Notes under the pieces: model-generated
Database searches by the model: none
Told to the model about the DNA's origin: nothing
What the model saw: only the letters and a program-made list of their open reading frames with translations
Shown here: piece after piece, positions 1 to 49,639 of the stretch
Position numbering within the stretch: position 1 is the first letter of the stretch
Layout: the number at the start of each line of letters is the position of its first letter
NCBI GenBank assembly: GCA_008632985.1
Contig: QPGO01000130.1
Coordinates: 186,001-237,150, forward strand
Origin: Psammoneis japonica
Taxonomy: Eukaryota
Direction: 5' to 3'
DNA length: 51,150 bases
Translations under genes and position numbers: made by a program

Positions 1-170
1 TCTGCACATGCTGTGTGCACACAAAAGTCATGTTTGTGCATCCACAAACTTGCAGCCATTGAGGTGCAGCAACATGACTTGCATGTCTGTTTGCACATGT
101 GCCATGTGTGCTCACAGATTGCACTCATGTGTCTACAGACTTGAAGCAATCAAGGTGCAGCAACATGACT
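1..170 (+). repeat. Degenerate tandem repeat, period about 91 bp
   Basis: AGGTGCAGCAACATGACT at 62-79 and 153-170. Upstream parts align with CA/TG swaps and TCCAC vs TCTAC. Confidence 0.7.
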
Positions 171-2295
171 GTGTGATGTGTCATTGAGATGCAGCCCAGC
201 CATGGTGGTGATAAAGAATCTCTAATTCCTGGGGTGCATGGGGATGGCCAATTTTGATCCTCAGATTGTTGCTCACACATGCCACATTGTGCACTTTGTC
301 AGGGGAGTGAAGTGTTCCCAAGACATCAAAAAGAGAAGAAATGGGCAAAAACCTCTGTTTTGCATGAGCAATGTGGTGGTGACTCCATGTCCATGCTGTG
401 ACTGGGCCACCAAGAGGTGTGCTGAAACATCTGACACCATGGTCTCCCTTCATTGCAAGCTTGAACAAGCCAGAAAGGTTCTTGAAAGCACACACACCCA
501 AGTGAGTGACAATCACAAGCACCATGGGGTCTGCCTTGGTGGCAGCAGAATTCTTGCAGCATGCAGACTGCAAAGAATGGGCTTGAAGGTTTTCTGGCCC
601 TGACAACCATCTTCTCCTCTACACTGGTGGTGGGGGTGACAGCAGCAAAATTGTGATGGAGCCATGATTGCACATTGGCTCACAGCAAATGGAAAACAAC
701 ATTGGCCACAAGCTTGTCCTTTAACTTGCAAAGTGAGTGGGTGAGAGGAGAAAAGCAAAAAAGGCATTGTGAGAAGAAGATGTTGAGTGCATGAGTGTTT
801 GTCTTTTTCTTCTTGTGTCACAATCTTGGTCCTCTGTTGACACAAGTGGAAGCCAGCTTCACCCCTCAGCTTGCACAGCTGAGTGCAAAATGTGGAGAAA
901 GTGGGCAACTCAAAAACTCTGCCTGCATCACCAGCTGGGGGATCAATTGCAAAAGATTTGAGCAGGGTTTGAGTCAGTGCAGCCAAGCACTGGCTTGCTC
1001 CTGGTGGTGTTCATTTTTGTCATTGTGCAGATGTTTTCTTGTGCCATTCTCCTTTTGTTGCAGTGCAGCACAGAATGAGTGCAAAAGTCACAAAACACCC
1101 TGCCAAGCTGCTGGACATTTTAGCATCTGCCAGGTGCAAGCAGTGCCACACAAGCAGAGTGGCAGGCAGTCAGCACATCTCATGCAAGTTGAGGGAAAAG
1201 TGTTTTAGAAAATGACTTTTGTTTGACTGGGCCAAAGTGGCTTGCAGAGTTGTTGCCAACACAAGCAGTCTCATGCCCCACAGTGCAAAGCTGTGCAGAT
1301 GTGCATCATGCTCAATTTCAACATTTGGGGCTTTGCCACTGGCCCACCCACCCACCCAAAATCAACTGCCCTCCAACTGCATGGCAAAGCTTTGGGCATG
1401 CTTTTCCAATGTGTGAAAACTCAAAATTCATCAATGGCAAAAATGGTGCTCATCTCTGCAATGCTTGCCTCAAAGCCATCCTGCCAACAACCCCCATCCC
1501 ATGACTGACATGCACATCCCATGGTGTTGTGACAAAAAAAACTTCTTCAGTCTGCATTGTGCACTGTCAGGTGACAAATGCAGCTGGTTGTTGCAGGTTG
1601 CATTGTGGAAATTGTGAGACTGGTTTGTCTCCATGAGAAATGGAGTTGAGTGAGCAGGGGTTGTGCAAATTCTTCTGTTGGCTCACATTTTGAATCACTT
1701 CTCTGATCCTGTTTGCACATGAAATCATGACACACACATGCACATGCTGCTTCATGTGTCAACAGCATGGGGGAGAGTTGCACATGCTGTGCTGTTCATC
1801 CTGAACATCAAGAAGAGTTGCATGCTGGATGATGGTGCAAGGACTTGCAAGTCTGTCAGGATGTGCAAGCTGCATGGTTGTTTGCTGTTGTGGTTGTGCA
1901 TTTGGTTCACTTGGCAATGCATTCTTGCAGCTGGGACTGGGAATGATCAACCCCTCAAATCTCATGCTCATTGCTGGTTGTCATGCTGGAGAGCCACTTT
2001 GCATCAACTGTGCACAACAACAGCTTGACTTGACACTCAACAAAAACACTTTTGACAACTTGTGTGTGAATGGTTTTTTTGTTCACTTGGTCTGCTTTGT
2101 TGCACTTGGGCCCACTTGGCAACTCACCCTTGCAGTGTGTGTCACAGTGTGACTTTTGCAATGTGCCCTCTCACAAATGCAGAAGTGCACACAGGAATGA
2201 GCACTGCTTGCACTGTTGCTCTGCTTGCAACTCAACAACAACTGGAGCAGCTTTTTTGTGTCATTTTTTTCAGGTTTCTGTGTGTTGCTTGGCTG

Positions 2296-2571
2296 AGCAA
2301 ACTTTTTGTTGGGTCAAACAAAAGCTGTGGCTTGAGATGGTGGCACCACGCAGCTGGGACACCACAACAGTCAGCTGTGTTGTTGCGTGTGACAACTTCA
2401 AGAATGTGAAAGCCTTCTAAACCAACAGAGCAGAGCAAAATTTTTGTTGGGTCAAACACAAGCTGTGGCTTGAGATGGTGGCACCACGCAGCTGGGACAC
2501 CACAACAGTCAGCTGTGTTGTTGCATGTGACAACATCAAGAATGTGAAAGCCTTCTAAACCAACAGAGCAG
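2296..2571 (+). repeat. Near-perfect 138-bp tandem duplication
   Basis: Two copies of TTTTTGTTGGGTCAAAC...CCTTCTAAACCAACAGAGCAG with only a few differences. Confidence 0.95.
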
Positions 2572-3919
2572 TTGTTGTAAAAAAGCATGGCTGCATCATT
2601 CAGTGGTGAATCCATGTTGAAAACTGGACACAAAGGTTGCATTGAACCACACACTTGCATGCAGCAGTGATGGCACATGAGGGAGAGTTGCACAGGCAGT
2701 GCGCTGCATCATGTCATTGTGGCACAGTGGGTGCCATGGCAGCAACAGTCCATCTGGAGGTCAACATTCTGACTTGCTCACTGCTCCACTCTTGAGCACA
2801 TTGCACTGATGGCAAATGGGGTGGAAAAATGGGGAGCTTGTGACGTGGCACATTTGAGCTCCCAAAATGCCAAATTTCCAGTAAAAACTTGACAAGCAAC
2901 ACCTGTCTTTGCAATTTGCTGACAATTTTGGCCTCAAATTGATGGTTGGAAAACAGATGTGCTTAATTTTTCTTGCAGGAGAGTTTCCACAGGAATTTGT
3001 GCAGAATGAAATCATGCTTGTTTCATGGCTGAAATTCGCCCCTGAGCAGGGGCCTCTGCTCAAACATTTGGCCATGTGAATTGTGCTGAGGGGCAAATTC
3101 TGAAAAAGGAGTTGGGCATGCTTGTGTGTTCTTTTTGTCATGTTAGATAGATTGTCAGCATTTGGTGAACATCAACTTTCGCAATGCCCACATCTGAAAA
3201 TCAGGTTGCTTTTCCAATTGTCTCTTGTTTTGCAAAAGCTGTTTGTGAGGGATGTGGCAACAACAGACACTGCAGTGGCACAAGAAGTCCTGCTGGACTG
3301 CTTTTTAGAGTTCTTCCTTTCCTTCTCATGCTCAGCAACAGTTGATTCTCTCTTTCACTTCTGGCAAACTGCTTGCCTTTTGATTTGCTGTTTTTGGGCT
3401 GGCACTGCTTTTTGTGGCTCTTTTTCTTTGGCGTCATGGTTGTCTCATGAAAGATGAGGGAGAAGTGACTTCAAACAGTGCTCCTCTGTTGTTGGGCACA
3501 TTGGCAGCAGCTTGCAAAGACGATGAAATGGTTTGACAGTGTGCAGAGTTGTCGTGGTGCAGGGGGGTTCTTGGAAATGGACAGCTTGTTGACTTCATTT
3601 TTGGCATGCCAGCAGGAACTTGGTGCGACAATGCTGCGCACGCAATTTTAAGTGGGACAACACTGAAGCGGCAGTTGTCCATCAGCTCATTCAAAAATTT
3701 GCACAATGCCAATGGCACTTTCACGATGATGATGCGGTGGTGGTGTCAGCACTTTCCCACAGCCATGCCACAGCACATCTTTCTTGATGTGACAACATGA
3801 TTAAGGAGAATGGCCAGTTTTGTGCAAACCACAGGAGCTTTGTTCATGCATGAATCACACACGGTTGGCTTGTCAACTTGTGCTTGCAGCCATGTTTCTG
3901 TGGATGTGCAAATGGTGCG

Positions 3920-4530
3920 CGGTGCCTTTGTGCTGCTGACACTTGCAGCGGTTGGAGCCTTTGCATCACTGCCACTTGTGGTGGTTGGGAGCCTTTGCAC
4001 TGCTGCAGAAGGATAGTTGGAGCATTTGTGCTGCTGCAGAAGGACAGCTTGGACTCTTTGCACTGTTTCAGAAATGACAGTTGGAGCCTTGGCACTGTTG
4101 CCACCTGTGGTGGTTGGAGTCTTTGCATTGCTGCCTCTTGTGGTGGTTGGGAGCCTTTACACTGCTGCAGAAGGACAGTTGGAGCCTTTGTGCTGCTGCT
4201 GCAGAAGAACAGTTGGGGCCTTTGTGCCACTTCAGAAAGGACAGTTGAGCATTGACACTGTTGCCACCTGTGGTGGTTGAAGTCTTTGCATTGCTGCCTC
4301 TTGTGGTGGTTGGGAGCCTTTGTGCTGTTGCAGAAGGATGGTCGGAGCCTTCGTGTTGCTGCAGAAGGACATTTAGATCCTTTGCACTGCTTCAGAAAGG
4401 ACGGTTGGAGCCTTTGCACCACTGCCTTGCCAGTGATGAGTGGGAGCCTTTGTGCTGCTGAAAAAGGATGGTCGCAGCCTTTGTGCTGCTTCACAAGGAC
4501 AGTTGGACCATTTGTGCTGCTTCAGAAAAG
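3920..4530 (+). repeat. Degenerate minisatellite (GTTGGAGCCTTTG.../CTGCAGAAGGA units), possibly a decayed ankyrin-like repeat gene
   Basis: Many imperfect copies of (G)TTGG(G)AGCCTTTG(C/T) and GCAGAAGGA. One frame reads AAEGHLDPLHCFRKDGWSL. Confidence 0.7.
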
Positions 4531-5469
4531 ATGGTCAGGCAATGACAGCGCCGCTGCCGGTGGCAACACTTGTCATGAACCAGAAGCTGCAATCAAATGA
4601 CAACCATTGAAAATGATGATGAAAATTGAATGAGTGGGTTTTGCATGCAAGCCAGAATGTTGGCACATTGTCACATGTGGAAGTGATGCTGCAGTCAACA
4701 TTGAATTAGAAGAAACTTCAAATTGCAGCCTGCTGTTGTGCCATCACAGTTTCTCATGTGCTGGTTTGATGGATCTTCAAGATTGCTGCATGGAGCTGCA
4801 AAGAAACAAGCAAGCAGAATCCCACACGGTTTGTGCTGGCATGCCAAAAACTGAAACTTGACAAGCTGTCCATTCCAAGAGACTGAAACATGCTGCACAC
4901 ACAAAATCTGTGTGTCACCCATGTGCTGCAAAACACCTGACAATTGTCACAATGAAAAGCAGCTAATTTCCCATGCAATTTTTCACTCAGCCTCAACAAA
5001 AGTTCAAGAAAAGTGGCACAGTTTGATTGGCATCACGCAGAACCCACGGACTTCTTAGTGCACAAGATTCTGATGACTGGCAGACCAGGAAAAATGCCAA
5101 AATCACATCATGACATCAAGGTTGACAATGGAGTTGCTCGTCTTGTCCATGCTCTTCACAAACAATGTCACAGCTCCCAACAAACATTGCTGCTGTCAAC
5201 ACAGGCATGAGAGGCATTCCCAATCACATCGGAGATGAGTCTGTGCAACATTTGCTTGACCGCCATTGGAGCAGATGTCAGATGAGCTGCAGGGGTTGTG
5301 TTGAAGATGACAAAGGCTTCACCGCACTGAAAGGAAGCAGTGTGATGAAGATGGAAAACAAATGCAAGCTGTTGGTGGCATTTGTGGAGAGGCCTGTAAA
5401 GGCTGGCTTCCAAGCACCAGCACGGCAGAGCAAGGAGCATGCTGTCACCACGAGCTCCATGCAAATCTT

Positions 5470-6700
5470 GGATTGCGAACATGATGGCTGACATCCTCAG
5501 CTTGAATGATGTGAAGAACAAGTGCCATGTGACTTTTGACAACCGAGTGGCGGATGAGTTCCAACTGCTGGACAAGAAGACTGGCAAATGAGCCACAGTG
5601 TTCAAAGTGAATGATGTTGTGCTGCACACCTTTGCACCAAGCCAGAAATTCTTTGACTGTGCAAAAGATCTCCAAGAAAGCAAGTTGCATGTCAGCATGC
5701 TGTCAAAGAAGAGGAAAAAAAGAATGGCAAGCAACAAGAAGCACAGAAGTGCATCAGGAGCTGCAGCTCCAACAGCGGAGCAGAGTTCCACAGGCTGCAC
5801 CAAGAGAGAGAGGCAACAAGCACCAAGCAAGCACTCAGACTGCACTGCACAGCTGGAACACCCCAGAGTGAGGGATTTCAAGCTGTTCCTGTGATCCAAC
5901 CAGGTGAAAAACTTGTCCATTGCATCTGAAAATGCAAACAGAATGGCGCCCATTTGGGGTTCATCAACAGATGTGCCAAAAGGCAAGACCAAGCATGCAC
6001 ATCATCCCCATGAGAGGAATGACAAATGACATCACAGCAGTTCTGCCTGAGACACATGAGAAGCAGAGATGTGGTGCAATCCTCTGCATTGATGCTGTGG
6101 AAGCATGCAGCGTCAAGCTGCTGTTTGCAATTGACAAGATGATCAAGTGTCAATTGAGTGTGAGATTGAAGTCCAAGAAGCACGTTGATGTGTGCAATGG
6201 GCTGGACATGCAGTGTGCTGGACATGGCTCTCCAACAGCACAACATGGCTCTGCTCAAGATTGACTTTGTGGAGTGTGTTCCCAAGTTCAAGGCCATGCT
6301 GGTGGAAGTCATGGACAGTGTGAACTCAGATCTGACATGTGCAAATGCAAATGACCATGTTCCAGAAGTCAAGCAGAGCATGCAGACCACCAAGGAGTGA
6401 ACTCAAGCCACTGCACACCACATGCCGCACAAGATGACACCCAAGTTGATGTGCAAGCATGCAGTGATCAAGAACACTGTCATGCCAAACATGTGCCCCA
6501 AAAAAGAGGGGATTTCTGACACTTGCAGTCCACACAGAACCTTGATTGTGACAAACACTTTCAGCTCAAGATTGGGAAATTTGCACTTTCTCACATTGAG
6601 AATGACCCGATGAAAACCACGGATGCATGTGGCATTGACAGCACATGCCTGCAGCCATGTTTTGATTTGCCCAAGGGCAGACACTGTGCCATGAACTCTT
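5470..6700 (+). mobile_element. Decayed Ty1/copia (diatom CoDi-type) pol fragment: pre-integrase and integrase region
   Basis: Fragments DILSLNDVKNKCHVTFDN, RDFKLFL*SNQVKN, LTCANANDHVPE, MPHKMTPKLM, GISDTCSPH, NLDCDKH, ENDP...IDSTCLQP match diatom copia integrase motifs, with Tyr->Cys/His changes, stops and frameshifts. Confidence 0.75.
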
Positions 6701-7576
6701 CTAATTTGCTTTTCTTCATTCAATTCTTGCAACTAAAACATGGAGCAAATGTGCAGGACAGCAAGGACCATCACTTTTGCAGAGTTCACCAGCTCCGCAT
6801 TCAACCTGTCGTTTGATCCAGAGCCTCTCCTTGACGATCCTCGCGTCTCGCTTTCAAATTCAGTGCATCCCATTCCTGACAAGGCACCAACAACAGAAGC
6901 CAGTCTTCTAGCCTCTGAAGCTGCCAGTGCTTCAGAAGCACATTGGCAGCCAATTGACACATTGGCCCAGTCCTTCTACTTCCATGCCCACCTTGTGGCC
7001 CTTGCAGCTTGTTGCAGCATTTAGTCTGCAGCCAACTCCTGTTAACGCATTTTTCTGTTTTAAGACCAAGCTTTGCAAGTGTCGCAACTACATCCACTCA
7101 AATTTGGCCGGATTGCCTTCCTGCAAAAAAGGCATCGCACACACAGTCGGCAAAGGCCACTTGAGAACTGCGAATCACTTTTTAACTGGTGAAGCCGCGT
7201 TGCTTCTTCCACAGAAAACGAGCCAGCCTTTCTTTGTCGCCCAACATCAGCCTCTCGTGGAAACTGGTATTAACTAAAAAGCCATTATAAAGAATGAAGG
7301 AGAGAGGAGAAGACACTATTACAATAATGCGTAATCTCCCTCTCCAAAACCCTACTGTAGGCCTAGGAATACTCAATATAACATGCAAAGTCCTCTCACG
7401 TTTCTTTGTTTTTTGTTGTTTTGAGCCCTTTTTTCAACTGCAACGGATTCAAAAAAGTGCAATTATTTCTTCAAGAATCACCATCAAATTATGCATGCCC
7501 ACCGAAACCCATGTAAAATACTCAAGATATCATGCATCAGCCACACCGTGAAACACATGCAGTATGCAGGCATGCA

Positions 7577-9469: not shown

Positions 9470-11410
9470 AGTATTCAGTTATGTACAGCCTATAAAGAAT
9501 GGAAGGGAACAGCAGCGAGGGAGGCACGGCGCCGTACGGCCGGAACACTCCCAGCTTGGGAGGTCTGTAATTGGTACGGGCACGGAAGCAACTGCAGTGG
9601 CGGTGGAGTAGAACGGGTGAAAACACAAGACGTAGGGCATTTGGTCGATGGGATAGGAGATGAAGGAGCAGGAAGAGAGGAAGCAAATTGGAGGGCGTGC
9701 ATGGAGAGGTGAAGGACCACATTGTAGCTAAAAGCTTGAAGAGCCCATTGGGAGGGAGTGGCAGTGCGACAAGTGCTGCCAAAGCGGTCGGAGGACAGGC
9801 GACACCATGCGAAGTCAGCGAATGGGAGAAGAGCAGATGGAGAGGACAAGGCACAGAGAAAGGCAGAGCAGGAAGCATTGAAGTTCCCCAAAAGTCAGAA
9901 GGAGAGGACCAGGGAGGTTTGGGTTGGGATCGGATGGAGGAAAATGTGGAGCCAAAGAGAAGACGGTGAGCAAAAAATCCAAGACCACCAAGGTGATCAA
10001 CGGTGAAAGGGAGAAGGAAGATGCCATCATTGTTGAACAAAGCAACAATGAGGGATCCATTGGCAGATGAAGTGGAGGGGGCCATGGGACTTCAGTCTCG
10101 TGCTTGTGTGGTGTGCCTCAGTTAGAATGGGGGAAGAGGGGGGGCAGGCAGACCAGGGGGGTGAGAGGGAGCTTGGGGTGCATTGACATCGACCGCAATG
10201 CAGTGGTGGTGGGAAGGAGCTGAAAGCAAAGCAGGGGGAGGGATGGAAATGCCAACACCGGCAGGGTGGAGGAGCGGATGGGTGGAGAGCAGATTCAAAG
10301 GCTCAAGATGAACATCATTGGGAGAATGACAGAGCTGAGCAAGGGGCCCCAAAGTTTGGGCTAGGATGAAGAGGGTGTCACGAAGGCTGTTGGAGAGCTT
10401 GGATTTGTTGGTGCGATGGCAAGAGAAGGTGTGGTTGCCACAGGTGCAAAGGGTGGCATGGCCACAAGGACAGGGTGCATTGACAAGGGAGGAAGGAAGG
10501 ATGGGAAGGCGGAGCTTGCATTTGACGGCAATGACGCAGGCGTCAGAAGGAAGGCGGGAGCTCTGGAAGCGTCGGGAAAAGGAATGAAGAGGGAGGCTGG
10601 CAAGCAGGGACAGCAGCAAAGGCAGAGAAACTTGCACTTTGGAGGGAGCATCAGTGAGGGTGGAAGCAACGACCTGTTGCTGGTGGTCATGGTAAAGTTG
10701 GCGGGCTGGGCCGGGAAGAGCAGCTGACTTAACTGGAGCAGCCAGGGAGGCAGGATAGAGAGGTTGTGCTAAGAGGACAGAGACAGCTGGAAACAGTGCA
10801 GAAGGGGAACAGCAAGAATGCCTGATGGCAGTTTGATGCCATGGGATGCAAAGCAAAATGAGTGGAGGAGAGACATGATGAATGATGGGATGGCAGTGGC
10901 CATTGGATTGCAGAGGCCAAGGCCACCAAGCAATGCCAGAAGGAAGGTCATGTGGTTGGGAAGAGGAGCAGCATGGGAGGCAGCATGGCAGAGAAATCAA
11001 TGAATGATGGTGAAAAGGGAGTCTTGAAAGGAAGAGGTCTCCAAAGGAAGGGATCAGAGGGATTGTCAGGGTCAAAGTTGTGACAGAAGTCAGCACCAAG
11101 AAGGTGGGCAGAGGAAGGAGTGAAGCAGTGTTTGAAAAGTTGACCTTGGGTTTGTTTGTCATGAAGGTGAGTGAGGAGCATGTCAACTTTATGAGAGAGA
11201 GTCAAGGAAATGTCGGAGAGAAAGGAGTTGGCAAAGTCTTAAGAGCCAAGAGGCTGGCAAAGGAAGTGGACACCAGAGATGAGCTTGGAGTTGTGTTTGC
11301 AGGGTTGAGACAGGAGAGAGTGGCACAGAGAGGGTTGGCTCAGGATGGGGAAAGAGCAGGGAAGGGGCAAACACCAGCAATGGAGGTGAGAATCTTGGTT
11401 TTGTCACCTT
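9470..11410 (-). mobile_element. 3' part of a CRE-like (RLE-type) non-LTR retrotransposon, decayed
   Basis: GGLGLxxP RT-thumb motif, then CPCG...G(D)HxxSC...RD...EP...(R)PA(D)V...IAVDV zinc-knuckle/RLE motifs, then LLPFTVDHLGGLG. Frameshifted. Confidence 0.65.
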
Positions 11411-14400
11411 CGTAGAAGTGTTCGTATGCACTTGTGTGTGTGCGGAGTGCATGGGCAGTCACCACAGGCCACAGACTCCAATCTCGAATGCAAACAGTCT
11501 GACATTAAAACCCAATGGTTTGGCCTGGGAAATTTTCATTCCTAATGTGAACAATCCCCCAGGGACCCAACAGCACTGCAGTTGACACAGGGTGGGTTTG
11601 GGGAATTTTAAAAGACTGAGACAACTCAACAGAGCTTGTGACACAAGACAATGATTGTCACAGCATCATCAACAACTTTCAAAGTCATTGAAAAATGACT
11701 GTTGACCATTGCAAAATTGAGTTCACTGAACATCACACACACAGCCGAAAGAATTGACAAATCCGTCTGGTCATCCTCAATCCAAATTTCGCGTGCCACA
11801 CGCACTCACCACTCTGACTCCAAGGACCAACAAACAATGATGCATTGAACCCCAAGTCCTCACCACAGGTTGCAGATTCCAATCTTGAACATGAATGGTC
11901 TGACATTAAAACCTGGTGGTTTGGCCTGGGAATTTTCGTTCCCAATGTGAACACCCCCCCCAGGGACCCGACAGTGCTGCAGTTGATGTGCCATCATGAC
12001 TCACTTGCAAAATTGCTTTAATCTGATTGCTGAACTCTACACTGCTCAAGTGAAGAGAGTGAATGATGGCAGTTGTGCCATCAACTGCGCTTGACATGGA
12101 CCGTTGTTGGCGCAAGTGGTTTGGAGTTTGCAATGGTTGCAGATTCTTGGGTCTTCTGGGTTGGGGTCTGGAATCACAAAGAAATGTTGGTGTTTGATCA
12201 TTTGCAAAGAGATGTTGACACTGAATTGTTGAACTCATTCTCTGATGCATCAGAGAAAGGCATTTGAAGACCATCTGCCAATCAGCATGATCAAGCAAAC
12301 AGGTGCTTGTGCAAGACACATTGCCACAGCTGCTCCCAAACAAATGGAGTGAGCTCTGATTTCATGAGCTTTGCATCCCAACTCATCTTTGCCTGTCACT
12401 GTTGCTGCTGCTTGCATCTAAGACAGGATGATGAAAGAGGATGGAGAGTGCAGTTTTCCATCGGCACAGATGGTGCACGCTGGGGAGTCTGGAGCAGAGC
12501 CTGGATGGGACAGCACATGACAGACCACTGCTGCCCATGTGTGGACTGGACAGAGCAGGTTGTCCCCAGTGCAAAACATTGTGATGGTGTTGCATCTCTC
12601 ATCATTCTTTTGGCATTTGAAGGTGATGAAGATGGTGTCAGCCAAGGCCAAGTCTGGATCTTTGTGCTGAAGCTTGGTGTTGTCCTGGAAGAAGCAGAGA
12701 TTCTTGAGGGTCAGAAGTTTGGTTCATTGGTTGCCTTTGGTCTTGAAGTGCTTGCAAGAGTGCATGATGAAGAACCAAGCTCCGACAGTCAGTTGGCTTG
12801 TGGCAACGTCATCACACATCATTTGGTTTTGGGACAAAGCTTGGAGGAGAGAGGCGGTGATCACTTTCTGCTGCTCCTGTTGTCCGTCTCATTGGTTTTT
12901 GCAGCCTTGACACTGGTGGAGTAAAAGGTGCGAGGTTTGTCCATCCTTGTCCAACCTTGGGTCCTTCCTGTTGCAAGACCTGAAGGTCGATGAGCCATGC
13001 CACATCATCCACGGCAACTCCAATGGTCCCTGCCACCAGTGTGTCAAATCATTCTGCTGAGAAGTGTCCTTCTTGCACAGCTGCTGTGAAGGCTCCAAGA
13101 GTGCAGTGTTGTTGGGTGATGGTGAGTTCGTTCATTGCCAAGAAACTTCTCCCAGCGGGTGAAAGAGCTGCGTCTCACTTCTTGTTGGTTTCTTCCACAC
13201 TTGCTTGTTGATGAGCATCTTTGGCGCCAAGGAGGTCAGCCAAGAAACAATTTCATTGGGCAGTGGCAAGATGCAAAAACTTTGAGGAACCTGCTTGGGT
13301 GCAACATGGCAAAGCAAACAGATGAGTGTGTCATCGGATGAGTTTCCGTCTCCGGACAGACAATCGCTGGTGACATTCTTCTTTCCAGGGAACCACTGGC
13401 TGAAGGAATTAACAGATGCAAATTGACGGGCAATCTCCATTTGCTCTGGGTCAGATTCTTTGTCAAAGTTGGATTTCTGCAGCCAGCTGGAGGCTGTGGC
13501 ACTGTCGCCTTGGGAGAGGACACATGAAAGATGAAAGTGGTGGTGGGTTTGCCTTTGATGGAGTCGATCCAGGGACATGTGACACTGGAAATGAATTCCT
13601 TGGTGTTTGGTGTGAGGCTGTGTGCCAGGTGTTGTGGGAGTTAAAATCGGAAAGCCCACCCAGCTGTGATGTTGCAGCCGCCAATGCCGTGTTCCGATGC
13701 ATCGGATCGACAGATGTGTGTTGGCTTGCGGCAAGTGACGAGGTTTGGGCTGACACCATTTTGAGCTTGTTTGAGGAAATTTGTCCAGAGTCTTGCATCT
13801 TTAATCTCTGATGGTTTTAATTTACACCATCTCCTGTTTTCCAAGTGCATCACAAGTCGATGGAGCCGACTTAGAAAATGGCGAGCGTGTGGGATGATTT
13901 GTCCCACAGATGGTTGAGCCAGCCGACAAATTGCTCGATTTCTTTGAAAAAGCATCCTCCTTTTTTGATGAGAGATTGGAGTTGGTTGGACCAAGCAACA
14001 AGTTCATGTTCTGTCAGAGAGATGCTCATGTGACGGGCGTCCAACAACCAACAGAGCACTGTCTTGAGTTCTTCAAGTCATCCTTTGGTGAAGAGTTTCT
14101 TCAAGCAGGTGAGACCATCTCATGTTGGGTGTTCTTTGGGTGAACTGGTCAGCCAATGGCATGAATCCCTGACAGTGCTGCCACTTCTTCTCGTTTGACA
14201 TTGTTGTTTGGGTCGGGTTTGACTGTGTGGCTGTGTTGTCCATGCAGACATCGACGACGCCATTGTCGTTGGATGGGATCTTGACTGTGAATTCAAGAGC
14301 TGGAGCAAATGGTGAATCATTGCTTTTACAGCAAGGAGAAGGGAGGTGGTCTTGAACTGGGTTTTGCAAAGCAGATGGGGCACCGGACTTGCATTGGAGG

Positions 14401-14700
14401 ATGTCGTTGGACAAATCGCAAGCAGATGTTCGGAGATGTCGCCTCACAAGTTTGGGTTTGGCTTGCCTCCAAAGGTGAGTCGGAGGGCCAGAAGGGCTGG
14501 ATCATCCAAAGTGACAATCATTTGGACTGTGGTGTCACTGTCCAGATGGCCATGATGGCAGGCTGATTTGCAATCAATCTTCTGGATCAGGGCCTGGGTT
14601 TGTGGGTGATGCAAGAAGCGGGCTGACACATGCAATGGATCAGGTGGCAAAGCATGTTTCCACACAACATGCAGGGAGTGAGTTCTTCGGAGATGACTCT
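9730..14700. other. TpA-depleted (hypermutated) repeat domain 2
   Basis: TA nearly absent, CG reduced, TG/CA excess. Covers the LINE and the YR retroelement. Confidence 0.85.
11462..11988 (-). repeat. Pair of about 125-bp direct repeats (11462-11586 and 11861-11988) at the 3' end of the YR element
   Basis: Shared GTCTGACATTAAAACC, TGGTTTGGCCTGGGAA, AATGTGAACA, CCCCCAGGGACCC. Arrangement fits the B1-A2-B2 split direct repeats of Ngaro/PAT elements. Confidence 0.85.
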
Positions 14701-28279: not shown

Positions 28280-31200
28280 TCCCCCACTTGCCCGATTTCG
28301 AAAAACTGAAAGCGTTTGTCTCATCCTTGTCGCCCACAGCTTCTCCTGCAGCCAAGTTGTCAACATCGATAAATCCAAAATTGTCCAAAATGCAGCACTG
28401 CATGCATCACAAATCCAAACAACCCCATCTCAAACAAGCCATGTGCACTGGCACAAAAATCACGTGGAAATTTCGCGCAGAAAAAATTGTGAAAATTGGG
28501 GTTTGGGCCGATTTTTTTCTCGTGCTTCTGCCGTGCTTCTCTGCTCCACCGACACCTCAAGGAATCGTTTTCCCCTGAAACCATTGACACTTTACATGAT
28601 GACTTTTGGGGCACAAGTGACACGATTCTGTGCGCGAACACTTCAAAACTCCATTTTCAGAAACTCGGCCAACACTTCACCACGGTGCCACCACCGCAAA
28701 CATTTTCCAATGATGGAATTTTGCCAAACAGTGGACATCGTTGTGTTTGTCACAAAAAAGCAAGTGCACAAAGTGTCGGCCGTTGTGACTGAAATCGATT
28801 CCTTGAGGTCGTGGCCCATTTTTCGCAAAGCACGGGAAAAGCGCGACGAGCAAGACATTCCGCGCGAATTTTCTACGTGAGTTTTGTGCCAGAAATGGGC
28901 CCAAACCCTGTTTTTTTGGGGTTCATGCTGCAGCCCCTGCACTGGATCACCATGGAACTGTGGGAAAGTCCAAAAGTGTGGGGCAGCATCAAAATCACGC
29001 AGAAACTGCGATCGCACTTCGCCGCGCTAAAACGAGAAATGTTGAGACGGCTTGAAATGCACCACAGCCATCAATCGTGACGCACTCTTCTTTGACAAGT
29101 CATCACATTGTTGCCAAACCAACGCTCCTCTGTGTGAAAGATGGGTCCAAAGGGTGCTCATCTTGTTCTTTGGAAGACTGCAAAGCTTCCTCTTGATTTG
29201 ATGCTGCCGGTCATCCAAGAAGCAGCAAAAAGGGGTTGTTTGGAACGACAAACTCGAGCAGCGGCAGAGAGCATCGAGGTCGACTCCTCTCCCCCAAGAC
29301 AACGATTGAAGACAGTGCTTGATGCGAATCTGTCAGCACGCGAGCATGCTGGCAACCGCTCATCATTCCTCCCAGAGCATGCTGTCTTTCACGTGGCCAA
29401 GGCTCTGTCTGAGAAACTGTGCGACGTTCACATTGTCTGCAACCATCCGACGAACTGTCATGCCTCCAAGCGTGCCTCTTGCAGACGCCGTGCTGAAGCT
29501 GAAAAGGCCAAGACTCGGCTCTTCATTGCTCAATCTAATTTGCAGAGTCTCCTTGGAGCTGAAAGCGTTGAAAGTCCGGCAGACCATGCGGAGCAAGTGG
29601 ACAAGGCCCAGAAGAAGATCCGCAGCCTAGAAAGCATGCTGGGTCGCGGGTTGACACCGGATTTTCACACAAATCTTGTGAGCATGGTGGAAGAACATGA
29701 TCCACAGGGGAAAGGAGTGGTCTCCATTGTCACTGCACCAATGCAGGTGGACCCGTGTGTTGCAAAATTGGTTGTCAACTTGGGTGCCGATGCAATTGCG
29801 TCGGGTGACTCAGATTTCTCGATGCACGTCGGTCCAAATGGACTGGATGTTGTGATCAAAGACATCTCTGTTTCGAAAATGAAGGATCCCATTGCAGCAT
29901 GTCGGCTTTGCACTGGTCAGCAAAAGATTGCTGAGATTGTCGAGGAGACTCTGAGTGTGAAATTGGGGCACTCGCCATTTGAAAAAGACAAAGATGCCAA
30001 ACGCGATGGCCAAACTCCAGGCCACCCAATGTTCAGTGGGGTTGATGGAAAATTTCACAAAGCTCTGAACCATCCAAAGGAGCTGCCGTCCGGCTCGAGC
30101 AATCAACGACAGAAATCTCACCAAATCCGACTGTTCAAGCGGCGCGAGTGGACTGATCGCATGGGCCTGGGAAGAGCACGTGGCAAAGGAGAGCTCAGGC
30201 ATTGTGACGAGCACCCAACAGAAATGGTGAAAGGAAAGTCAATGAAGTGCAACAAGGAGCATGTGCCCATCAAAGCATTTGAAGCACCAAAGCCAATTGG
30301 GTCTCAGAAGAGCTTTCACTCACCTCCAAGAACTGACTCTGATGGACTGGGGACTGACCGAGAAATGCTCCGCCATGTCATCAATGCAAGTGCTCAAGAA
30401 TCTGTCTTGTCTGTTCAGACGCATCATGCGCTTGTACAAGAAGGATTGCGTGAGAGCAAAAAAACTTCTTCGCAAAAGGAAGCAACAGCCGGTGAGAATG
30501 CTGCAGGTTGATGCCATGACAAACCAAAGATCGGGCTCTTCTCACTCACTCCCAAGGAAGTGAAGCGTCGCATGGGATTTTTGAATTTGAAGCATCTTCT
30601 TGAGCACAGTGCAGTGGTGCATGGCGGCAATTTGGATGAAATGATGAAGACGGCAACCCACACGACTTTTGTTGAAGAGCTCCTCTTCACGTGCGAATTT
30701 TCATTTGGCCGAACAATGGCACGTTGGGAGGACTGGGAGAGGGAGCATGGTGCAGATCACAAGATGTTGGGAAAGGCGCTAAAATGCTGATTGAAGAAGG
30801 AGTTGGAGTGCCGTGAGCAATGGCCAATGCATGCATCATACGACGAGGATGTGAAGTTCCGGAAGCGCCAGTGGGACCGACACTTTAACCCCAAAGATGG
30901 CCACCGACCTGTGGTGCATGATGCGTCCAATGCACACACGGGAGACCCGAGCTCTGGGGATGTGAATCGATCGCTGCACAATGTGTGTTGTGGAATGTGC
31001 TGCGCCAAAGCTGGAATTGCCGCACAGCTCTGCAACTGGATTTTTGGCCTTCCTCTTGTCACAGGCCATTGTGATGATGACCAGCAGATTCGATTCACAA
31101 AGATGCTTGAGCCACAAAAACGTTTTGCTGAGAATGACAATCCTGCAGGAGGAGAGGGCACAATTGTGAAGCACTTCTTGAACACATTTGACAAAGGATG

Positions 31201-31705
31201 CCATCTGCTGTTGGAAGCAAAGCGGGAGGAGCAGCTGTGTTGCCAGCCAGACAGAGTTGACAAGCTTTCAGGTGTCAATGCACTTCGTTCAGCATGTGTT
31301 GCTGTGACAAGATCAGGCAATGAGCGAGCCGTAAAACGATGCAAACTGTCCTGGTTTCTCAGTCGTGGCATGAGAAACCAGCAATGGAGTGTTGATTTAG
31401 TTTGCGACGTCTGGGAGGCATGGACTTTCCGAGTCAACTTCATGTGTGATGCATTTCAGCAAAGGCTCATGGTTGTGTGTCAAAACAACACTCAGATCTG
31501 CACTAATTTTAGACCAGTTGCGTGGCTTTTACATGTTGTGCAGTCGCAGCTGTCGCCTTGGTTTAGTTTTTGCGAAGTCTGGGAGGCGTGGACTTTCCGA
31601 GTCAGCTTTTTGCATGATGCATTTCAACAAAGGCGCACAGTGTGTGACATCAAAATAACACTTAGATCTGTGCAGTGTTAGAACAGCTTAGTGGCTTTTA
31701 GATGG
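28280..31705 (+). mobile_element. Decayed Harbinger/ISL2EU-like DNA transposon with an XPG/Exo1-like nuclease segment, THAP-like/HTH segment and DDE transposase
   Basis: Transposase 30791-31460: VVHDASN, FDKG(C), RSGNERAVKR. Upstream ORF 29141-30511: VLDAN, IVC(D)HP, APMQVDP, AIASGDSDF (5' nuclease-like), then W...C..H. Termini not identified. Confidence 0.65.
31395..31703 (+). repeat. Duplication with about 170-bp offset at the transposase 3' end
   Basis: GTCTGGGAGGC.TGGACTTTCCGAGTCA, GATGCATTTCA.CAAAGG, CAAAA.AACACT.AGATCTG and GTGGCTTTTA each occur twice. Confidence 0.85.
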
Positions 31706-37700: not shown

Positions 37701-38530
37701 GGTTATACCGGAACTCTCGTGTCTCGTGTGTTCTGAGTTTTTTTTTTGTTGGTTCACACGGCGGGCAATGTTGCAACGGCTAGGGCCCTACCAGCTACCA
37801 GCGATACAGTGCTGCGGTTACAGTAAACGGAATAGTCGTCCGTGCTCTACATGAACAACATGTATGTATCTACATATGTATGTACAGTATGTACGAAGTA
37901 TGCATGTGTTACTGTACCGTTATGGACGTTATGATGTGTTTCATTTTTTGAATCACGTTTTGTCGAAACGCCACCTTTTGCTCAAACATGTCATGTTTGA
38001 GCAAACAGCAAGTTTGAGCAATTGCTCAAACATGCATGCGCCGGTGCTGCAAAACTGCCGTGCAGTGCTGCACAGCGTGACTGCCACTTTCACTGCATGC
38101 AGATGTCAGTGCAAAATGAACACAAAGGAAACAAGAAGAGCTCACAGTCGTCAGAGAAAACAACACAATCGCAGCCATCACACCATGGTGATGCCAATGA
38201 CGATTTCTCAACAACAACACCTTCAAGAAACCCAACAATCTGACAAAAGACATGCCACACAAACTTGCACATGATGATGTTGAAAGCTCCGGTGGGGCAG
38301 GCTCGCTGGGGGGAGCTGTGGCAACAAACAAGGAACAGCGTCATGCGACAACATTGTTTTGTCTTTTGTTTTGATCACAAACATTTTTCAAAGCATGCCT
38401 TGGCATTGACATGCACTGCAATGTTGGCGTTTGTTGCTCCCAGTCAAAGATGCGGCAAACAGATCACCAGCGCAGCCGCTGTCTTTGTGTCATCACAGGC
38501 CATGCATCGTCATGCTGAACAACATGACCG

Positions 38531-38935
38531 AGTGATGAGAGTTCATGTTTCTGATCTGTGGCACAGGTTGGTCATGCACATGATTTTGCTGTTGGTGTTT
38601 GTCAGAGTTTTGGCCCTCTTTCTTTGCTCATGGACCATTGGGTTTGCTGTGCCGATGTCCTTTGGTCCATCATTTTGGTCCACCTTTTTTGGTCATTGTC
38701 CAGTCTGCACTTTTCTTGTGGACCTGGCACCAAAATGGCATCTTTTCTCTCTTTGACTTTTTTGGTTGCTTTTGGAGCCCCCTTCTCCTCTTCTCACTTC
38801 TTGCAAAATTTTGTGTTCTTGAGGACCAGAGTCACTTTGACAGCTCTCTTGCTGTTGAGGCTTTCATGCTGTTTGGACAATCATTGTCACCACACCCCAG
38901 CTTGTGCTGTTGTCTGGCTCATTTCCATGGCTGTG
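38531..38935 (+). repeat. 5' LTR (approximate ends)
   Basis: Aligns along its length with 44854-45256, e.g. CCTGGCACCAAAATGGCATCTTTTCTCTCTTTGACTTTTTTGGT. Confidence 0.9.
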
Positions 38936-44468: not shown

Positions 44469-44516
44469 CAAGTCTCATGTTTCAAAACCTGACAAGTCTC
44501 ATGTTTCAAAACCTGA
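44469..44516 (+). repeat. Perfect 24-bp tandem duplication in the copia RNase H region
   Basis: CAAGTCTCATGTTTCAAAACCTGA twice. Confidence 0.95.
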
Positions 44517-44853
44517 CTCTGTGATTTGCACTCAGAAGATTGCCAGTGAAGAGCAGTGGGCTGACACTTTGACAAAGGGTTTGGTGCAAGAGAAGTTTGA
44601 TTGTTTGTGGAAGAAGGTTGTGGGGTGTTGAGATGTGGTGGATTCATTCATGTGCATGTTGATTTGAGTTAAAATGCATGTGTTGCACACAAAAAATGGG
44701 GTGATGGTGATCAGGTGTGATGACTGGGGTTGTTGCATCTCTGCATGTGGTTTCATGTCATTGCATGATGGGTTGTGTTTTGGTGCAAACTTTGTTTTGA
44801 AATCTCAGTGGGACAATCTGACATCTTGAAGTCAACATCTTCTCAAGAGGGAG

Positions 44854-45256
44854 AGCAACAAGAGCTCCAGTTTCTGATCTGTGATGTGGGTTGGTGATGC
44901 ACGCGATTTTGCTGTTTTGGTGTTTGTGAGAGTTTTGGTCCTCTTTCTTTGCTTGTGGACTGTTGAGTTTTATGTGCCAATGTCTTTTGGTCCATCATTT
45001 TGGTCCACTTTTTGGTCATTGTCCAATCTACACTTTTCTCATGTGCCTGGCACCAAAATGGCATCTTTTCTCTCTTTGACTTTTTTGGTCACTTTTAGAG
45101 CTCCCTTCTCCTCTTCTCACTTCTTGTGGATTTTCATGTTCATGAGGACCAGGATCACTTCAACAGCTCTCTTAACATTGAGCAGGCTCACATGCCATTT
45201 AGGCAATTGTTGTCACCCCAGCTCATGCTGTTGTCCGGCTCATTTCCGTGACTGTG
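44854..45256 (+). repeat. 3' LTR (approximate ends)
   Basis: Immediately follows the polypurine tract and aligns with the 5' LTR. Confidence 0.9.
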
Positions 45257-46299: not shown

Positions 46300-46800
46300 C
46301 ACATGTGCACGCAACTGAAGACCTCCTCAGGAGACATCACGAGTCCTCAAAAAAACTTCCCCTGGGCACTCTAGACCAAATTGTTGCCCAAGCAAAACAA
46401 AAGCATTTTTTGGATGATGAAGTCACACTGTCCAAACACACAACAAACAAACAAACAAACAAACAAGCACTCCAAAATGAGTCAAACCCACAAGGTCTCC
46501 ATTCACAGTGGCTCCACTGAAACCCACACCAGTCAAGCACTTGATGGTGTTGCAGCTGTGTCAAGTCACTGTTGAAACAGAAAGAGTTTCTTGAAGCTGC
46601 CAACTTCCTCATCAAAGGATCCGAGATGGAGAAAGAAGTGGTCAAATGGAGCAGGAAAACTGTGGCTGGGGGAACCATCCAATGAAGACAATCCATTGGT
46701 CAAGCTGGGATCCAAGTGCTGCCAGGGCTTCATGAAATGGACAAGGATGAATTGGCAACAAAACAAAATTAACTTGTACAAAGGTGCCAAAAGGCAGAGG
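46300..46800 (+). mobile_element. Decayed pogo/Tc5-like transposase N-terminal (HTH) fragment
   Basis: KLPLGTLDQIVAQAKQKH, LKQKEFLEAANFLIKG, KLGSKCCQGFMK resemble CENP-B-type HTH regions of diatom pogo-like transposases (recognised by motif only). Confidence 0.45.
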
Positions 46801-49570: not shown

Positions 49571-49639
49571 CCCAAATGGACCATGGCGGTCGTCAACGTC
49601 GTGACAAAAAGAAAAAATAAAATTGTCACCATCACGATT

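Follow-up and report, generated by a model that had tools for sequence, protein, structure and literature searches.

Four domains of the window (the whole 51,150-nucleotide stretch of Psammoneis japonica DNA analysed here) have lost nearly all of their TA dinucleotides, and the TA sites that survive occupy flanking contexts in proportions that are not due to chance or base composition. The explanation that best accounts for the whole, and that we consider probable, is a transition process that acted after insertion on TpA only, followed a rule set by the base next to the A (position +1) and was accompanied by a separate decay of CpG. Such a process would act at the DNA level in transposon-derived or foreign-looking domains; an A changed in the top strand would leave TpG and one changed in the bottom strand CpA, the two strands being struck independently and about equally. 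How readily the A in 5′-T-A-N changes would depend on N (T ≥ C > G >> A), and A at +2 and +3 would add to the protection. The decay of CpG to TG/CA would join TA loss in three domains and be absent from the fourth.

Erased domains and the copia element

In the erased domains, the observed/expected ratio (o/e) of TA is 0.03–0.1 and that of TG/CA is doubled, at ~1.9, versus ~0.55 and ~1.2, respectively, in the flanking un-erased genes. GC content is unchanged, being 0.45–0.50 in erased and un-erased domains alike. TA alone is erased; AA, GA and CA are not depleted (whole-window o/e of 1.19, 1.07 and 1.49). The un-erased DNA carries genes (ArgJ, AMPK beta, trypsin and others).

The first domain, M1 (positions 1..6850; like the other three, without an assigned strand), has a TA o/e of 0.03–0.07, a CG o/e of 0–0.27 and a TG/CA o/e of 1.9–2.1. 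Its 26 TA sites comprise 17 YTAR, 9 mixed (RTAR or YTAY) and no RTAY, and a Pfam scan of two of its ORFs at E ≤ 1 returned no families; no transposable-element protein was recognised. It contains a minisatellite (3924..4527, plus strand; ~17 copies of a 31–34 bp unit, with a 163 bp higher order), in which two columns, reading either TG or CA, supply most of the variation between units, and whose identity is 76% as DNA and 91% once recoded as purine/pyrimidine. M2 (9800..14700) retains 25 TA (16 YTAR, 8 mixed and 1 RTAY) and has lost CpG partially. M3 (28400..31400) has a TA o/e of ~0.05–0.07, with 11 TA (6 YTAR, 3 mixed and 2 RTAY), and lacks retroelement features; an open frame of 457 codons on its plus strand (29138..30511) contains 23 His and 10 Cys codons and no Tyr, and the five columns in which both homologues have Tyr are occupied by His (four) and Arg (one). 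M4 (38100..47300) consists of a copia element, recognised by its protein, and of erased flanks, and keeps 44 TA (21 YTAR, 22 mixed and 1 RTAY). No mobile-element protein was recognised among the ORFs scanned in M1, M2 and M3.

CpG was lost in M1, M2 and M4 (CG o/e 0–0.3) and retained in M3 (o/e ~0.7). The loss of CG to TG/CA resembles, at the level of sequence, the 5-methylcytosine decay of methylated transposons; such decay leaves TA loss unexplained, however, and M3 lost TA while keeping CpG. In the copia element, codons for Arg, Asp, Gly and Ala are changed behind C; at conserved columns, Arg has become His (three), Gln (three), Cys (two) and Trp (two), and Asp has become Asn in six cases, all behind C.

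The two LTRs of the copia element (5′ LTR, 38538..38935; 3′ LTR, 44861..45256; both on the plus strand) are 84.7% identical over 391 aligned bases, and the identity rises to 94.4% after purine/pyrimidine recoding. Of the 60 positions that differ, 35 fall within 22 TA/CG-type dinucleotide differences (13 TG↔CA doublets, 5 CG versus TG/CA and 4 TA versus TG); the others include 14 transitions and 11 transversions. Since the LTRs of one element are identical at integration, the TA/CG-type differences between them arose after insertion, and on both strands. TG and CA follow one another in random order in all four domains (runs-test z from −1.05 to +1.25), with no long same-strand tracts and little TG/CA skew. 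In the 993 aligned copia codons, Tyr occurs once versus 27.2 times in homologues, Cys 47 versus 18.1 times and His 56 versus 36.3 times; the decayed reverse-transcriptase frame (43330..44034, plus strand; Pfam RVT_2, E = 4.5e-24) likewise has Cys or His in place of Tyr. It is from such end states, namely the missing Tyr codons, the LTR differences and the loss of TA without loss of CpG in M3, that we read a change confined to TpA.

The same LTR differences bear on ADAR-like A-to-I editing of retroelement RNA before reverse transcription and integration. The copia element is a retroelement, and the 5′ U preference of ADARs (10.64898/2026.01.13.699255, Discussion) would suit TpA. Editing of this kind is nonetheless extremely improbable, given that the LTRs diverged at TA/CG-type sites after integration, that both strands are affected in an interleaved manner and that M3 was erased too, though it has no retroelement features.

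Contexts of the surviving TA sites

The initial annotation had reported ~25 TA sites between positions 1 and 6800, of which ~16 were YTAR, 6 RTAR, 3 YTAY and none RTAY. A direct count bears this out, with 26 sites split 17/6/3/0 (CTAA 6, TTAG 7, TTAA 4; ATAA 1, ATAG 2, GTAA 3; CTAC 2, TTAC 1), and the copia body (39500–44700) shows the same pattern, as had also been noticed, with 13 YTAR (12 of them TTAA), 4 RTAR, 6 YTAY and no RTAY among 23 TA. The counts were compared with those of the window's own gene-like domains (948 TA, of which 184 are YTAR, 494 mixed and 270 RTAY), with 75 related un-erased copia loci and with the expectation of a first-order Markov model of the erased DNA. Region 1–6800 differs from gene-like DNA with a χ2 of 34.8 (p = 3e-8); the probability of finding no RTAY among 26 sites is 1.6e-4 against that baseline and 3e-3 against the Markov expectation, and that of finding at least 17 YTAR is 4e-7 and 3e-4, respectively. 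Pooled over the four domains, the 106 surviving TA comprise 60 YTAR, 42 mixed and 4 RTAY (χ2 = 82, p = 1e-18 versus gene DNA; χ2 = 104, p = 3e-23 versus the copia loci; χ2 = 38.5, p = 4e-9 versus Markov).

Whether context dependence would outlast correction for base composition and poly-A/T tracts had been set beforehand as a check. It persists, both against the Markov expectation and when sites in runs of three or more T or A are dropped (27/17/4 versus 121/411/270, p = 1e-12). The predicted order of loss, RTAY > RTAR = YTAY > YTAR, also holds, survival relative to gene DNA being 0.016 for RTAY, 0.101 for RTAR, 0.087 for YTAY and 0.361 for YTAR.

The same bias is present outside the window. 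A related copia element in an unrelated public contig (L002) is half erased (TA o/e 0.29, CG o/e 0.22), and its 86 TA split 27/44/15 into YTAR, mixed and RTAY versus 16.5/43.9/25.5 expected (p = 0.004). Contigs from a public run (word depth ~54) match the erased copia element of the window over 921 bases with 4 differences and over 932 bases with 3, and include paralogues separated from one another by TG↔CA doublets. An artefact of sequencing or assembly, in which heavily modified CpG and TpA bases of repeats were miscalled as TG/CA, could produce random TG or CA at palindromic sites through conflicting strand calls; in view of the independent contigs and of paralogues that differ by such doublets, we give it almost no credence.

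TA is palindromic, so that both strands contribute to the loss at xTAy, which can be written as g(y) + g(complement of x), i.e., as the sum of two half-site terms. This additive model fits the survivors on the gene baseline (deviance 5.3, 6 df, p = 0.50) and on the copia baseline (deviance 3.2, p = 0.78), in agreement with the earlier proposal that each strand is affected on its own; additive and multiplicative models of the flanks are indistinguishable on two of three baselines. The fitted loss terms by +1 base are 0.16–0.5 for A, ~1.0–1.1 for G, 1.4–1.7 for C and 2.1–2.5 for T, and the order A < G < C < T is found in at least 99% of 300 bootstraps (P(gG < gC) = 0.997, P(gC < gT) = 0.993) and with four baselines. 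With two such terms, what is left is mostly TTAA, CTAA/TTAG and GTAA/TTAC, with almost no ATAT, GTAC or ATAC/GTAT. The rule that YTAR survives and RTAY is absent thus captured the bias between classes and the order of loss, but a purine/pyrimidine split is too coarse (deviance of the R/Y-only model 37.3, 8 df, p = 1e-5). TAA is the refractory context, and TAG is lost nearly as much as TAC. CTAG, although a YTAR site, is not protected: 4 sites survive of ~43–51 expected, which is no better than for mixed sites.

Among the 211 survivor half-sites, A is enriched at +1 (54% versus 23%), +2 (55% versus 25%) and +3 (40% versus 26%), so A/T-tract structure, as opposed to a trinucleotide rule, may account for part of the protection. 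Taken further, local DNA structure or chromatin could have shielded the survivors altogether, with TA in TTTAAA-like tracts being inaccessible and the YTAR excess a by-product; the share of TTAA in the copia body (12 of 23 TA) would suit this. Yet the bias outlasts removal of the runs, and tract structure cannot explain why G, C and T at +1 differ from one another. We therefore regard shielding as the whole cause as quite unlikely.

The present TA sites might instead be new, having arisen through background substitutions (G>A or C>T) in the abundant TG and CA, so that the bias would mirror where such changes occur. In LTR pairs such as TTGG/TTAG, either state may be the ancestral one. However, the TG+CA precursor pools vary no more than 3.6-fold between contexts (225–815) and are not tracked by TA, of which there are 29 per 398 for TTAA, 0 per 295 for ATAT and 2 per 606 for ATAC/GTAT. 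New TA in susceptible contexts would, moreover, need to be removed again, which amounts to the same context rule, and we consider this origin very improbable.

Direction of the change

The half-site terms leave two readings of which A changes. Either y decides how often the A of TA-y is changed, or, in the mirror case, it is x that decides this for the A of x-TA. Our data support the former over the latter without settling the matter. A mass balance gives the share of lost xTAy that is now xTGy; on the assumption that the ancestral composition was like that of 75 distant copia loci (38–47% protein identity; M1–M3 are not copia), the observed shares (and those predicted by the model) are 0.03 (0.10) for ATAA, −0.19 (0.20) for CTAA, 0.10 (0.14) for GTAA, 0.28 (0.31) for ATAG, 0.60 (0.40) for ATAC and 0.66 (0.60) for CTAC. 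With this copia baseline, the mirror model falls outside the 95% interval in four of the six contexts, the gene baseline being indecisive. The calculation also assumes an even split of CpG products, and shares in the +1 A contexts would rise to 0.35–0.59 if all lost CpG had become CpA; contexts with +1 C and those with +1 A still differ under any common split.

Codons point partly the same way. At conserved copia columns where TA spans two codons, Ile/Met codons gave six T|GT (Val) and three C|AT outcomes, versus one T|GA and nine C|AA for Asn/Lys codons (Fisher p = 0.02), and among LTR pairs with TA kept in one copy five outcomes fit the preferred direction and one does not. The initial annotation had proposed that the A in 5′-TAY is preferentially changed to G; the mass balance and the cross-codon outcomes favour this, but Tyr codons (TAY) conflict with it. 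At 13 conserved Tyr codons, the preferred direction predicts a majority of Cys, whereas 5 Cys and 8 His are found (P(≥8 His) = 0.046), besides one Arg and one Phe. All four such codons whose third base is now C read CAC (His), none TGC. Two Leu (TTA) to Ser (TCA) replacements also run against the rule, as they require T>C in the refractory TTA context. Among the 40 variants listed of 1513 between paralogous contigs, four informative single changes divide equally for and against.

The agent may be an enzyme with trinucleotide specificity, e.g., a DNA adenine deaminase. It need not be an adenine deaminase, since the rule reads just as well for thymine if the opposite strand is considered: a T preceded by [A>G>C>>T] and followed by A (5′-[A>G>C>>T]-T-A) would be modified (e.g., oxidised or glycosylated) or mis-repaired and end as C. 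All counts are symmetric, so A>G on one strand and T>C on the other are inseparable by sequence, and Tyr codons gave His, through T>C on the coding strand, more often than Cys (8 of 13). On the other side, there is no direct evidence of a thymine-modifying system, and the single published case proposes, as described in its main text, adenine deamination (10.64898/2026.01.13.699255). We hold chemistry on thymine to be unlikely, and retain the change of A in TA-y as the preferred reading.

Comparison with known systems

The only precedent found in the literature is that case, described for Bigelowiella natans in a 2026 preprint (Mettrop et al., bioRxiv 10.64898/2026.01.13.699255). According to its main text, 230 of 231 hypermutations in mutation-accumulation lines were A>G or T>C changes, every one at TpA; the mutations arose de novo, in some lines at a rate raised by orders of magnitude, the targets were integrated giant-virus and virophage DNA, and adenine deamination was proposed without proof. 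The likeness extends, as far as that text describes, to a TpA-only change yielding TpG or CpA by strand (seen here from end states) and to long-term TA depletion with TG/CA enrichment in clustered 1-kb windows; foreign or mobile DNA is the target there, as it is here in M4 and may be in M1–M3. The differences are that the host there is a chlorarachniophyte and here a diatom (a stramenopile), that the TA o/e given for the Bigelowiella NCLDV region is 0.45 versus a near-saturated 0.03–0.1 here, and that an LTR retrotransposon is among the targets here and CpG is co-erased in three of the four domains. The words “context”, “trinucleotide”, “flanking” and “CpG” do not occur in the main text of the preprint, which accordingly gives no account of the +1/+2 rule.

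Repeat-induced point mutation (RIP) of ascomycete fungi is similar in that repeated or mobile DNA decays domain by domain, through transitions alone and at particular dinucleotides, while genes are spared. In RIP, C becomes T, chiefly within CpA, so that TpA is created and GC falls, as far as the source describes; here, TpA is depleted and GC is the same in erased and un-erased DNA, and fungal RIP was rejected.

It is possible, at somewhat less than even odds, that diatoms possess a dedicated DNA-level defence in which A>G editing, equal on the two strands, removes TpA from transposons and other invading DNA, that it is the same as or convergent with the Bigelowiella system and so widespread in SAR, and that the footprint shows what a DNA adenine deaminase or thymine modifier yet to be described prefers. 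If so, this would be a GC-neutral “reverse RIP”, and the footprint T-A-[T≥C>G>>A], with avoidance of A at +2, could identify the enzyme; the spared TA-A would point towards the enzyme that carries out this uncommon form of genome defence.

ADAR hyper-editing of dsRNA and retroelements also yields A>G clusters in repeats with a 5′ U preference, and ADARs prefer G on the 3′ side. The changes described here differ in being post-integration, on both strands and interleaved, and their order T ≥ C > G >> A is unlike a 3′ G preference.

A link to the TadA family, as the initial annotation suggested, may be considered by analogy. TadA, ADAT2-ADAT3 and TadA-derived base editors convert A to a G-like base and need T/U at −1 (U33-A34 in tRNA), and a T lies directly 5′ of the changed A here, too, only TA being erased. 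The gene responsible would, on this view, encode a CDA-fold deaminase (HxE...PCxxC); scanned ORFs of the window gave no match to a deaminase family. In eukaryotic ADAT2/3 substrates, A34 is followed by A, G or C, whereas A is the worst +1 base here. TadA edits the motif UACG (PMC13170351); in the erased domains, the loss term of +1 C lies above that of G and below that of T, so that T serves no worse than C, and the +2 G of the motif is confounded by CpG erasure.

Two kinds of DNA and a decayed retrotransposon

GC content is even across the 51,150-base window (0.42–0.55), and segmentation by dinucleotide content separates two kinds of DNA. Gene-like DNA has observed/expected (o/e) ratios of ca. 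0.4–0.65 for TA, 0.7–1.3 for CG and 1.1–1.3 for TG/CA. In four erased domains, M1–M4, TA o/e falls to 0.0–0.2 (mostly 0.03–0.1) and TG/CA rises to 1.5–2.1. In M1 (1–6850), M2 (9800–14700) and M4 (38100–47300) CpG is also nearly gone (o/e 0–0.3, reaching 0.57 at the edge of M2). In M3 (28400–31400) TA o/e is ca. 0.05–0.07 and CpG is retained (ca. 0.7), with 7 TA against 91 CG in 29001–31000. CpG decay is therefore a process separate from TA loss, and CpG loss without TA loss was seen in none of the domains of the window. M3 may be a more recent or an unmethylated target. Among the CpG half-sites that survive in M1, M2 and M4, CGA (109/416) and CGT (88/416) are scarce relative to baseline shares of 0.36 and 0.26, i.e., decay of CpG is faster next to A/T than next to G/C.

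The long open frames of the un-erased DNA are ordinary eukaryotic genes (ArgJ, AMPK beta, GNAT, a Cid1-type nucleotidyltransferase, trypsin and an FG-GAP protein). The ArgJ frame has 5271 relatives, the best of them 73% identical; those with names among the 120 listed are all from diatoms, mainly raphid pennate genera. The source is therefore a diatom, and one whose own proteins are absent at high identity from the database searched. The ORFs of M1, M2 and M3 matched no family by Pfam at E ≤ 1 and none via Atlas, and a search of 5.8 billion proteins returned only two relatives, both unannotated, of the 457-codon M3 frame (29138–30511), which contains 0 Tyr, 23 His and 10 Cys codons.

M4 contains a decayed copia LTR retrotransposon, with an RVT_2 frame at 43330–44034, further polyprotein homology over 39000–44500 and LTRs at 38538–38935 and 44861–45256. 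The two LTRs of one element are identical at integration; this pair now differs at 60 of 391 aligned positions, the differences including 13 TG<->CA doublets, 5 CG versus TG or CA, 4 TA versus TG, 14 other transitions and 11 transversions. Purine/pyrimidine recoding raises LTR identity from 84.7% to 94.4% and that of two other internal duplications from 82–83% to 92–98%; no further long paralogous pairs were found after recoding of the whole window. TG and CA are randomly interleaved in all four domains (runs-test z from −1.05 to +1.25), thus without long single-strand tracts, and the TG/CA skew of the erased domains is small. The erasure is therefore real, occurred after insertion and affects both strands. 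The divergence between LTRs of one element and the lack of single-strand tracts speak against RNA-level editing before integration.

A base-calling artefact behind the erased sequence is unlikely, since contigs from a public run of the same sample reproduce it (921 bases with 4 differences and 932 bases with 3), and transitions make up 1134 (75%) of the 1513 variant places, with TG<->CA doublets between paralogues among them. In these contigs the word depth of the copia region is 190–540, compared with 54 for neighbouring genes.

The decayed reverse transcriptase frame had no homologue at E ≤ 1e-10 among 155 candidates. An exhaustive search retrieved 23,633 homologues at E ≤ 0.001 with a best identity of 49%, too distant to serve as ancestors at the DNA level. 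We compared copia with 150 homologues by tblastn (993 aligned codons). It has 1 Tyr, 47 Cys and 56 His, against homologue averages of 27.2, 18.1 and 36.3. In the 418 well-conserved columns, frequent replacements of the type expected from TA decay were Tyr->Cys (5), Tyr->His (4), Ile->Val (5) and Thr->Ala (2), the last two types always behind T. Among the frequent replacements of the CpG-decay type, Asp->Asn (6) and Val->Ile (5) always lie behind C; the others are Arg->His/Gln/Cys/Trp (10), Thr->Met (3) and Ala->Val (3).

The stop codons TAA and TAG are ca. 3.5 and 8 times rarer in erased than in gene DNA (2.4 and 1.0 per kb in 1–6850, 9800–14700 and 38100–47300, against 8.3 and 7.9), and TGA rises to 26 per kb. 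Loss of these stops leaves long meaningless open frames, and many of the long frames in M1, M2 and M4 are by-products and not genes. TpA erasure thus accounts for both the long false frames and the tyrosine-free proteins, and a search for diatom transposons by similarity will fail if it does not take the decay into account.

Two further observations concern M1 and M2. A minisatellite within M1 (3924–4527; unit of 31–34 bp, ca. 17 units, 163-bp higher order) has units whose main difference is TG versus CA at two fixed columns; these columns were left out of the evidence because their ancestral states are ambiguous and the units are not independent. In M2, the region 10001–11000 has a strong strand asymmetry (GC skew 0.45, AT skew 0.30, GC 0.55) and is overlapped by a 359-codon minus-strand frame of no known family.

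Flanks of the surviving TA sites

The initial annotation held that among TA sites surviving in 1–6800 YTAR is kept and RTAY is absent, and that the body of copia shows the same. A direct count agrees with its figures: 1–6800 contains 26 TA, namely, 17 YTAR (TTAG 7, CTAA 6, TTAA 4), 6 RTAR, 3 YTAY and 0 RTAY, and the copia body (39500–44700) contains 23, namely, 13 YTAR (12 of them TTAA), 4 RTAR, 6 YTAY and 0 RTAY. When M1–M4 are pooled (23,953 bases, 106 TA), there are 60 YTAR, 22 RTAR, 20 YTAY and 4 RTAY, compared with 184, 240, 254 and 270 among the 948 TA of 26,504 bases of gene-like DNA (chi2 = 82, p = 1e-18; for 1–6800 alone, chi2 = 34.8, p = 3e-8). The bias is also present when 75 related copia loci that are not erased serve as the reference (chi2 = 104, p = 3e-23). 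It also remains after correction for composition by a first-order Markov model built on the erased DNA (expected 32.7 YTAR, 52.4 RTAR plus YTAY and 20.9 RTAY; p = 4e-9) and after removal of sites in runs of three or more T or A (27/17/4 for the same three classes against 121/411/270; p = 1e-12). Density-normalised survival was 0.016 for RTAY, 0.087 for YTAY, 0.101 for RTAR and 0.361 for YTAR, which is the loss order that had been predicted (RTAY > RTAR = YTAY > YTAR). The outcome that would have contradicted the initial annotation, a lack of NTAN dependence once base composition and poly-A/T tracts are corrected for, was thus not observed, and the context bias of the surviving TA is confirmed as highly non-random.

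The 16 NTAN contexts are heterogeneous within the purine/pyrimidine classes. TTAA is the best survivor (29, with 42–50 expected from un-erased baselines), followed by CTAA/TTAG (27 of 74–115) and GTAA/TTAC (19 of 112–125). CTAG, though a YTAR site, survives poorly (4 of 43–51), and ATAT (0 of 53–109), ATAC/GTAT (2 of 119–151) and GTAC (2 of 62–71) are nearly extinct. We described the loss of xTAy as the sum g(y) + g(complement of x), with one term for the A of each strand, set by the nucleotide immediately 3′ of it. This additive model fits well when gene DNA is the baseline (deviance 5.3, 6 df, p = 0.50); the estimates of g are 0.16 for A, 0.99 for G, 1.68 for C and 2.34 for T. The data reject both a uniform loss rate (deviance 126, 9 df) and a model with purine and pyrimidine classes only (deviance 37.3, 8 df, p = 1e-5). 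Bootstrapping recovered the order A < G < C < T in 99% or more of 300 replicates, and Markov and mononucleotide baselines yielded it as well. The 75-locus copia baseline gave the same order (g = 0.28, 1.12, 1.66 and 2.52 for A, G, C and T; deviance 3.2). For the latter, 80 of 433 confirmed metagenome loci were fetched, and five with TA o/e below 0.5 (L002, L015, L055, L063 and L065) were dropped; the other 75 of the 80 have an ordinary TA o/e of 0.50–0.79. On two of three baselines, the data did not distinguish between adding and multiplying the effects of the two flanks.

The preference for A extends beyond the adjacent base. Among the survivor half-sites of all four domains (n = 211), the share of A is 54% at +1 (against 23%), 55% at +2 (against 25%) and 40% at +3 (against 26%), with no enrichment at +4. 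The +2 signal after a +1 C comes partly from CpG/TpA decay of the flank itself; such decay cannot account for A at +2 after a +1 G (31 of 48 against 13.5 expected). Of the flank rule first proposed, the dependence on each strand’s own flank stands and the division into Y and R does not: the bases favouring loss after TA are those other than A, in the order T ≥ C > G, and the influence reaches +2. TAGA and TAAA are typical surviving sequences.

Direction of the change and comparison with known systems

The proposed mechanism, here called the A-directed model, was that the A of 5′-TAy is changed to G, on either strand, depending on y. A mirror model, in which the A of xTA changes depending on x, gives equal loss per site, so survivor counts cannot decide between the two; their products differ. 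We compared the shares of TA, TG, CA and CG in each asymmetric context between erased DNA and the 75 un-erased copia loci, with lost CpG split evenly. The fraction of lost sites now present as xTGy was 0.03 for ATAA (95% interval −0.19 to 0.24; 0.10 predicted by the A-directed model), −0.19 for CTAA (−0.56 to 0.18; 0.20), 0.10 for GTAA (−0.10 to 0.27; 0.14), 0.28 for ATAG (0.05 to 0.50; 0.31), 0.60 for ATAC (0.39 to 0.78; 0.40) and 0.66 for CTAC (0.47 to 0.83; 0.60). Under the mirror model each of these predictions is replaced by its complement to 1. Contexts with +1 C and with +1 A remain distinct whatever common split of CpG is taken, and the fractions of all three +1 A contexts are under 0.5 provided that at least one quarter of lost CpG went to TpG. 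This copia-locus baseline replaced a k-mer mass balance against gene DNA, in which losses and gains were unbalanced and the +1 A odds ratios were 0.92–1.08.

Codon boundaries in copia point the same way. At conserved Ile/Met columns (n = 18), six are T-GT (Val; the hyphen marks the codon boundary) and three are C-AT; at conserved Asn/Lys columns (n = 23), one is T-GA, nine are C-AA and one retains T-AA (Fisher p = 0.02; background third-position usage is T 0.42 and C 0.15). Accordingly, TAT would be resolved via its A and TAA via its T. Among pairs in which TA is kept in one copy, five outcomes fit the A-directed model and one is contrary.

Tyrosine codons count against it. Conserved TAY codons became 5 Cys and 4 His in copia and 4 His, 1 Arg and 0 Cys in the M3 frame; 8 His among 13 outcomes has P = 0.046 under the A-directed model, and where the codon is now CAC, conserved TAY gave His in 4 of 4 cases. 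Variants between paralogous contigs are neutral (among the 40 of 1513 shown, four informative single changes split 2:2), and the cross-codon comparison in M3, which rests on two homologues at 40–48% identity, is uninformative on direction. Overall, the A-directed model is roughly twice as well supported as its mirror. The firm parts are that TAT is the most and TAA the least susceptible context; how TAC, which resembles the TadA motif, behaves is least certain.

Diatoms are a major, ecologically dominant algal group. Fungal RIP (C>T) and, in animals, APOBEC and ADAR are known cases of hypermutation aimed at mobile DNA. As described in the texts available, the chemistry of RIP runs the other way: C becomes T at CpA, which creates TpA, whereas the diatom process destroys TpA. 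The base that follows A34 in ADAT2/3 substrates is A, G or C, and the preference of ADARs at +1 is for G, both unlike the T ≥ C > G >> A order found here. The closest parallel comes from mutation-accumulation lines of Bigelowiella natans, in which, according to the main text of a preprint, two integrated viral regions received 231 of the 302 nuclear mutations and 230 of these 231 were A>G or T>C, all 230 on TpA; the genome has 124 clusters of TA-poor, TG/CA-rich windows, and an ADAT2 homologue is the proposed agent (Mettrop et al., bioRxiv 10.64898/2026.01.13.699255). That main text does not contain the words “context”, “trinucleotide”, “flanking” or “CpG”, and its supplementary mutation table may contain data against which the flank rule could be checked. 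A full-text literature search returned no report of TpA depletion or hypermutation of diatom transposons; its diatom match for “TpA” (PMC4504042) is, by its available text, unrelated. As far as these sources go, a TpA-only A:T>G:C process has been reported only in this one 2026 preprint, for one alga and with no flanking rule.

We conclude that the window records an erasure of mobile or putatively mobile DNA in a diatom that is specific to TpA, neutral for GC content and close to saturation, and that its kind is otherwise known from that single preprint. TadA, the basis of the enzymatic suggestion in the initial annotation, edits UACG according to the available text of PMC13170351. Judged by sequence, the footprint is compatible with a deaminase needing T at −1 and does not single out TadA; a thymine-directed chemistry, which would follow the same rule on the complementary strand, fits no less well. 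The motif is quantitative (a +1 order of T ≥ C > G >> A that applies to each strand and adds up over the two, shows no strand clustering and does not depend on CpG decay), makes the question of the responsible enzyme directly testable and offers a concrete handle for finding it. A natural DNA-acting, TA-specific A>G editor, if that is what it is, would be of interest to base editing.

Partly erased loci

L002, a copia locus on an unrelated public contig, is a second case. Over most of its 4.2 kb (1–4221), TA o/e is 0.29, CG 0.22 and TG/CA 1.5, and the 86 TA left comprise 27 YTAR, 44 RTAR plus YTAY and 15 RTAY, against 16.5, 43.9 and 25.5 expected (p = 0.004). L002 thus carries the same bias at an earlier, half-erased stage.

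At the end of the window, 49548–51150 is a high-copy repeat, judging by a word depth of 515–2233 against 54 in neighbouring genes, and includes a 347-codon frame that matches no Pfam family. It is partly TA-poor (13 TA in 50001–51000, o/e 0.23) and retains CpG (0.81), and may be a young family with erasure in progress.
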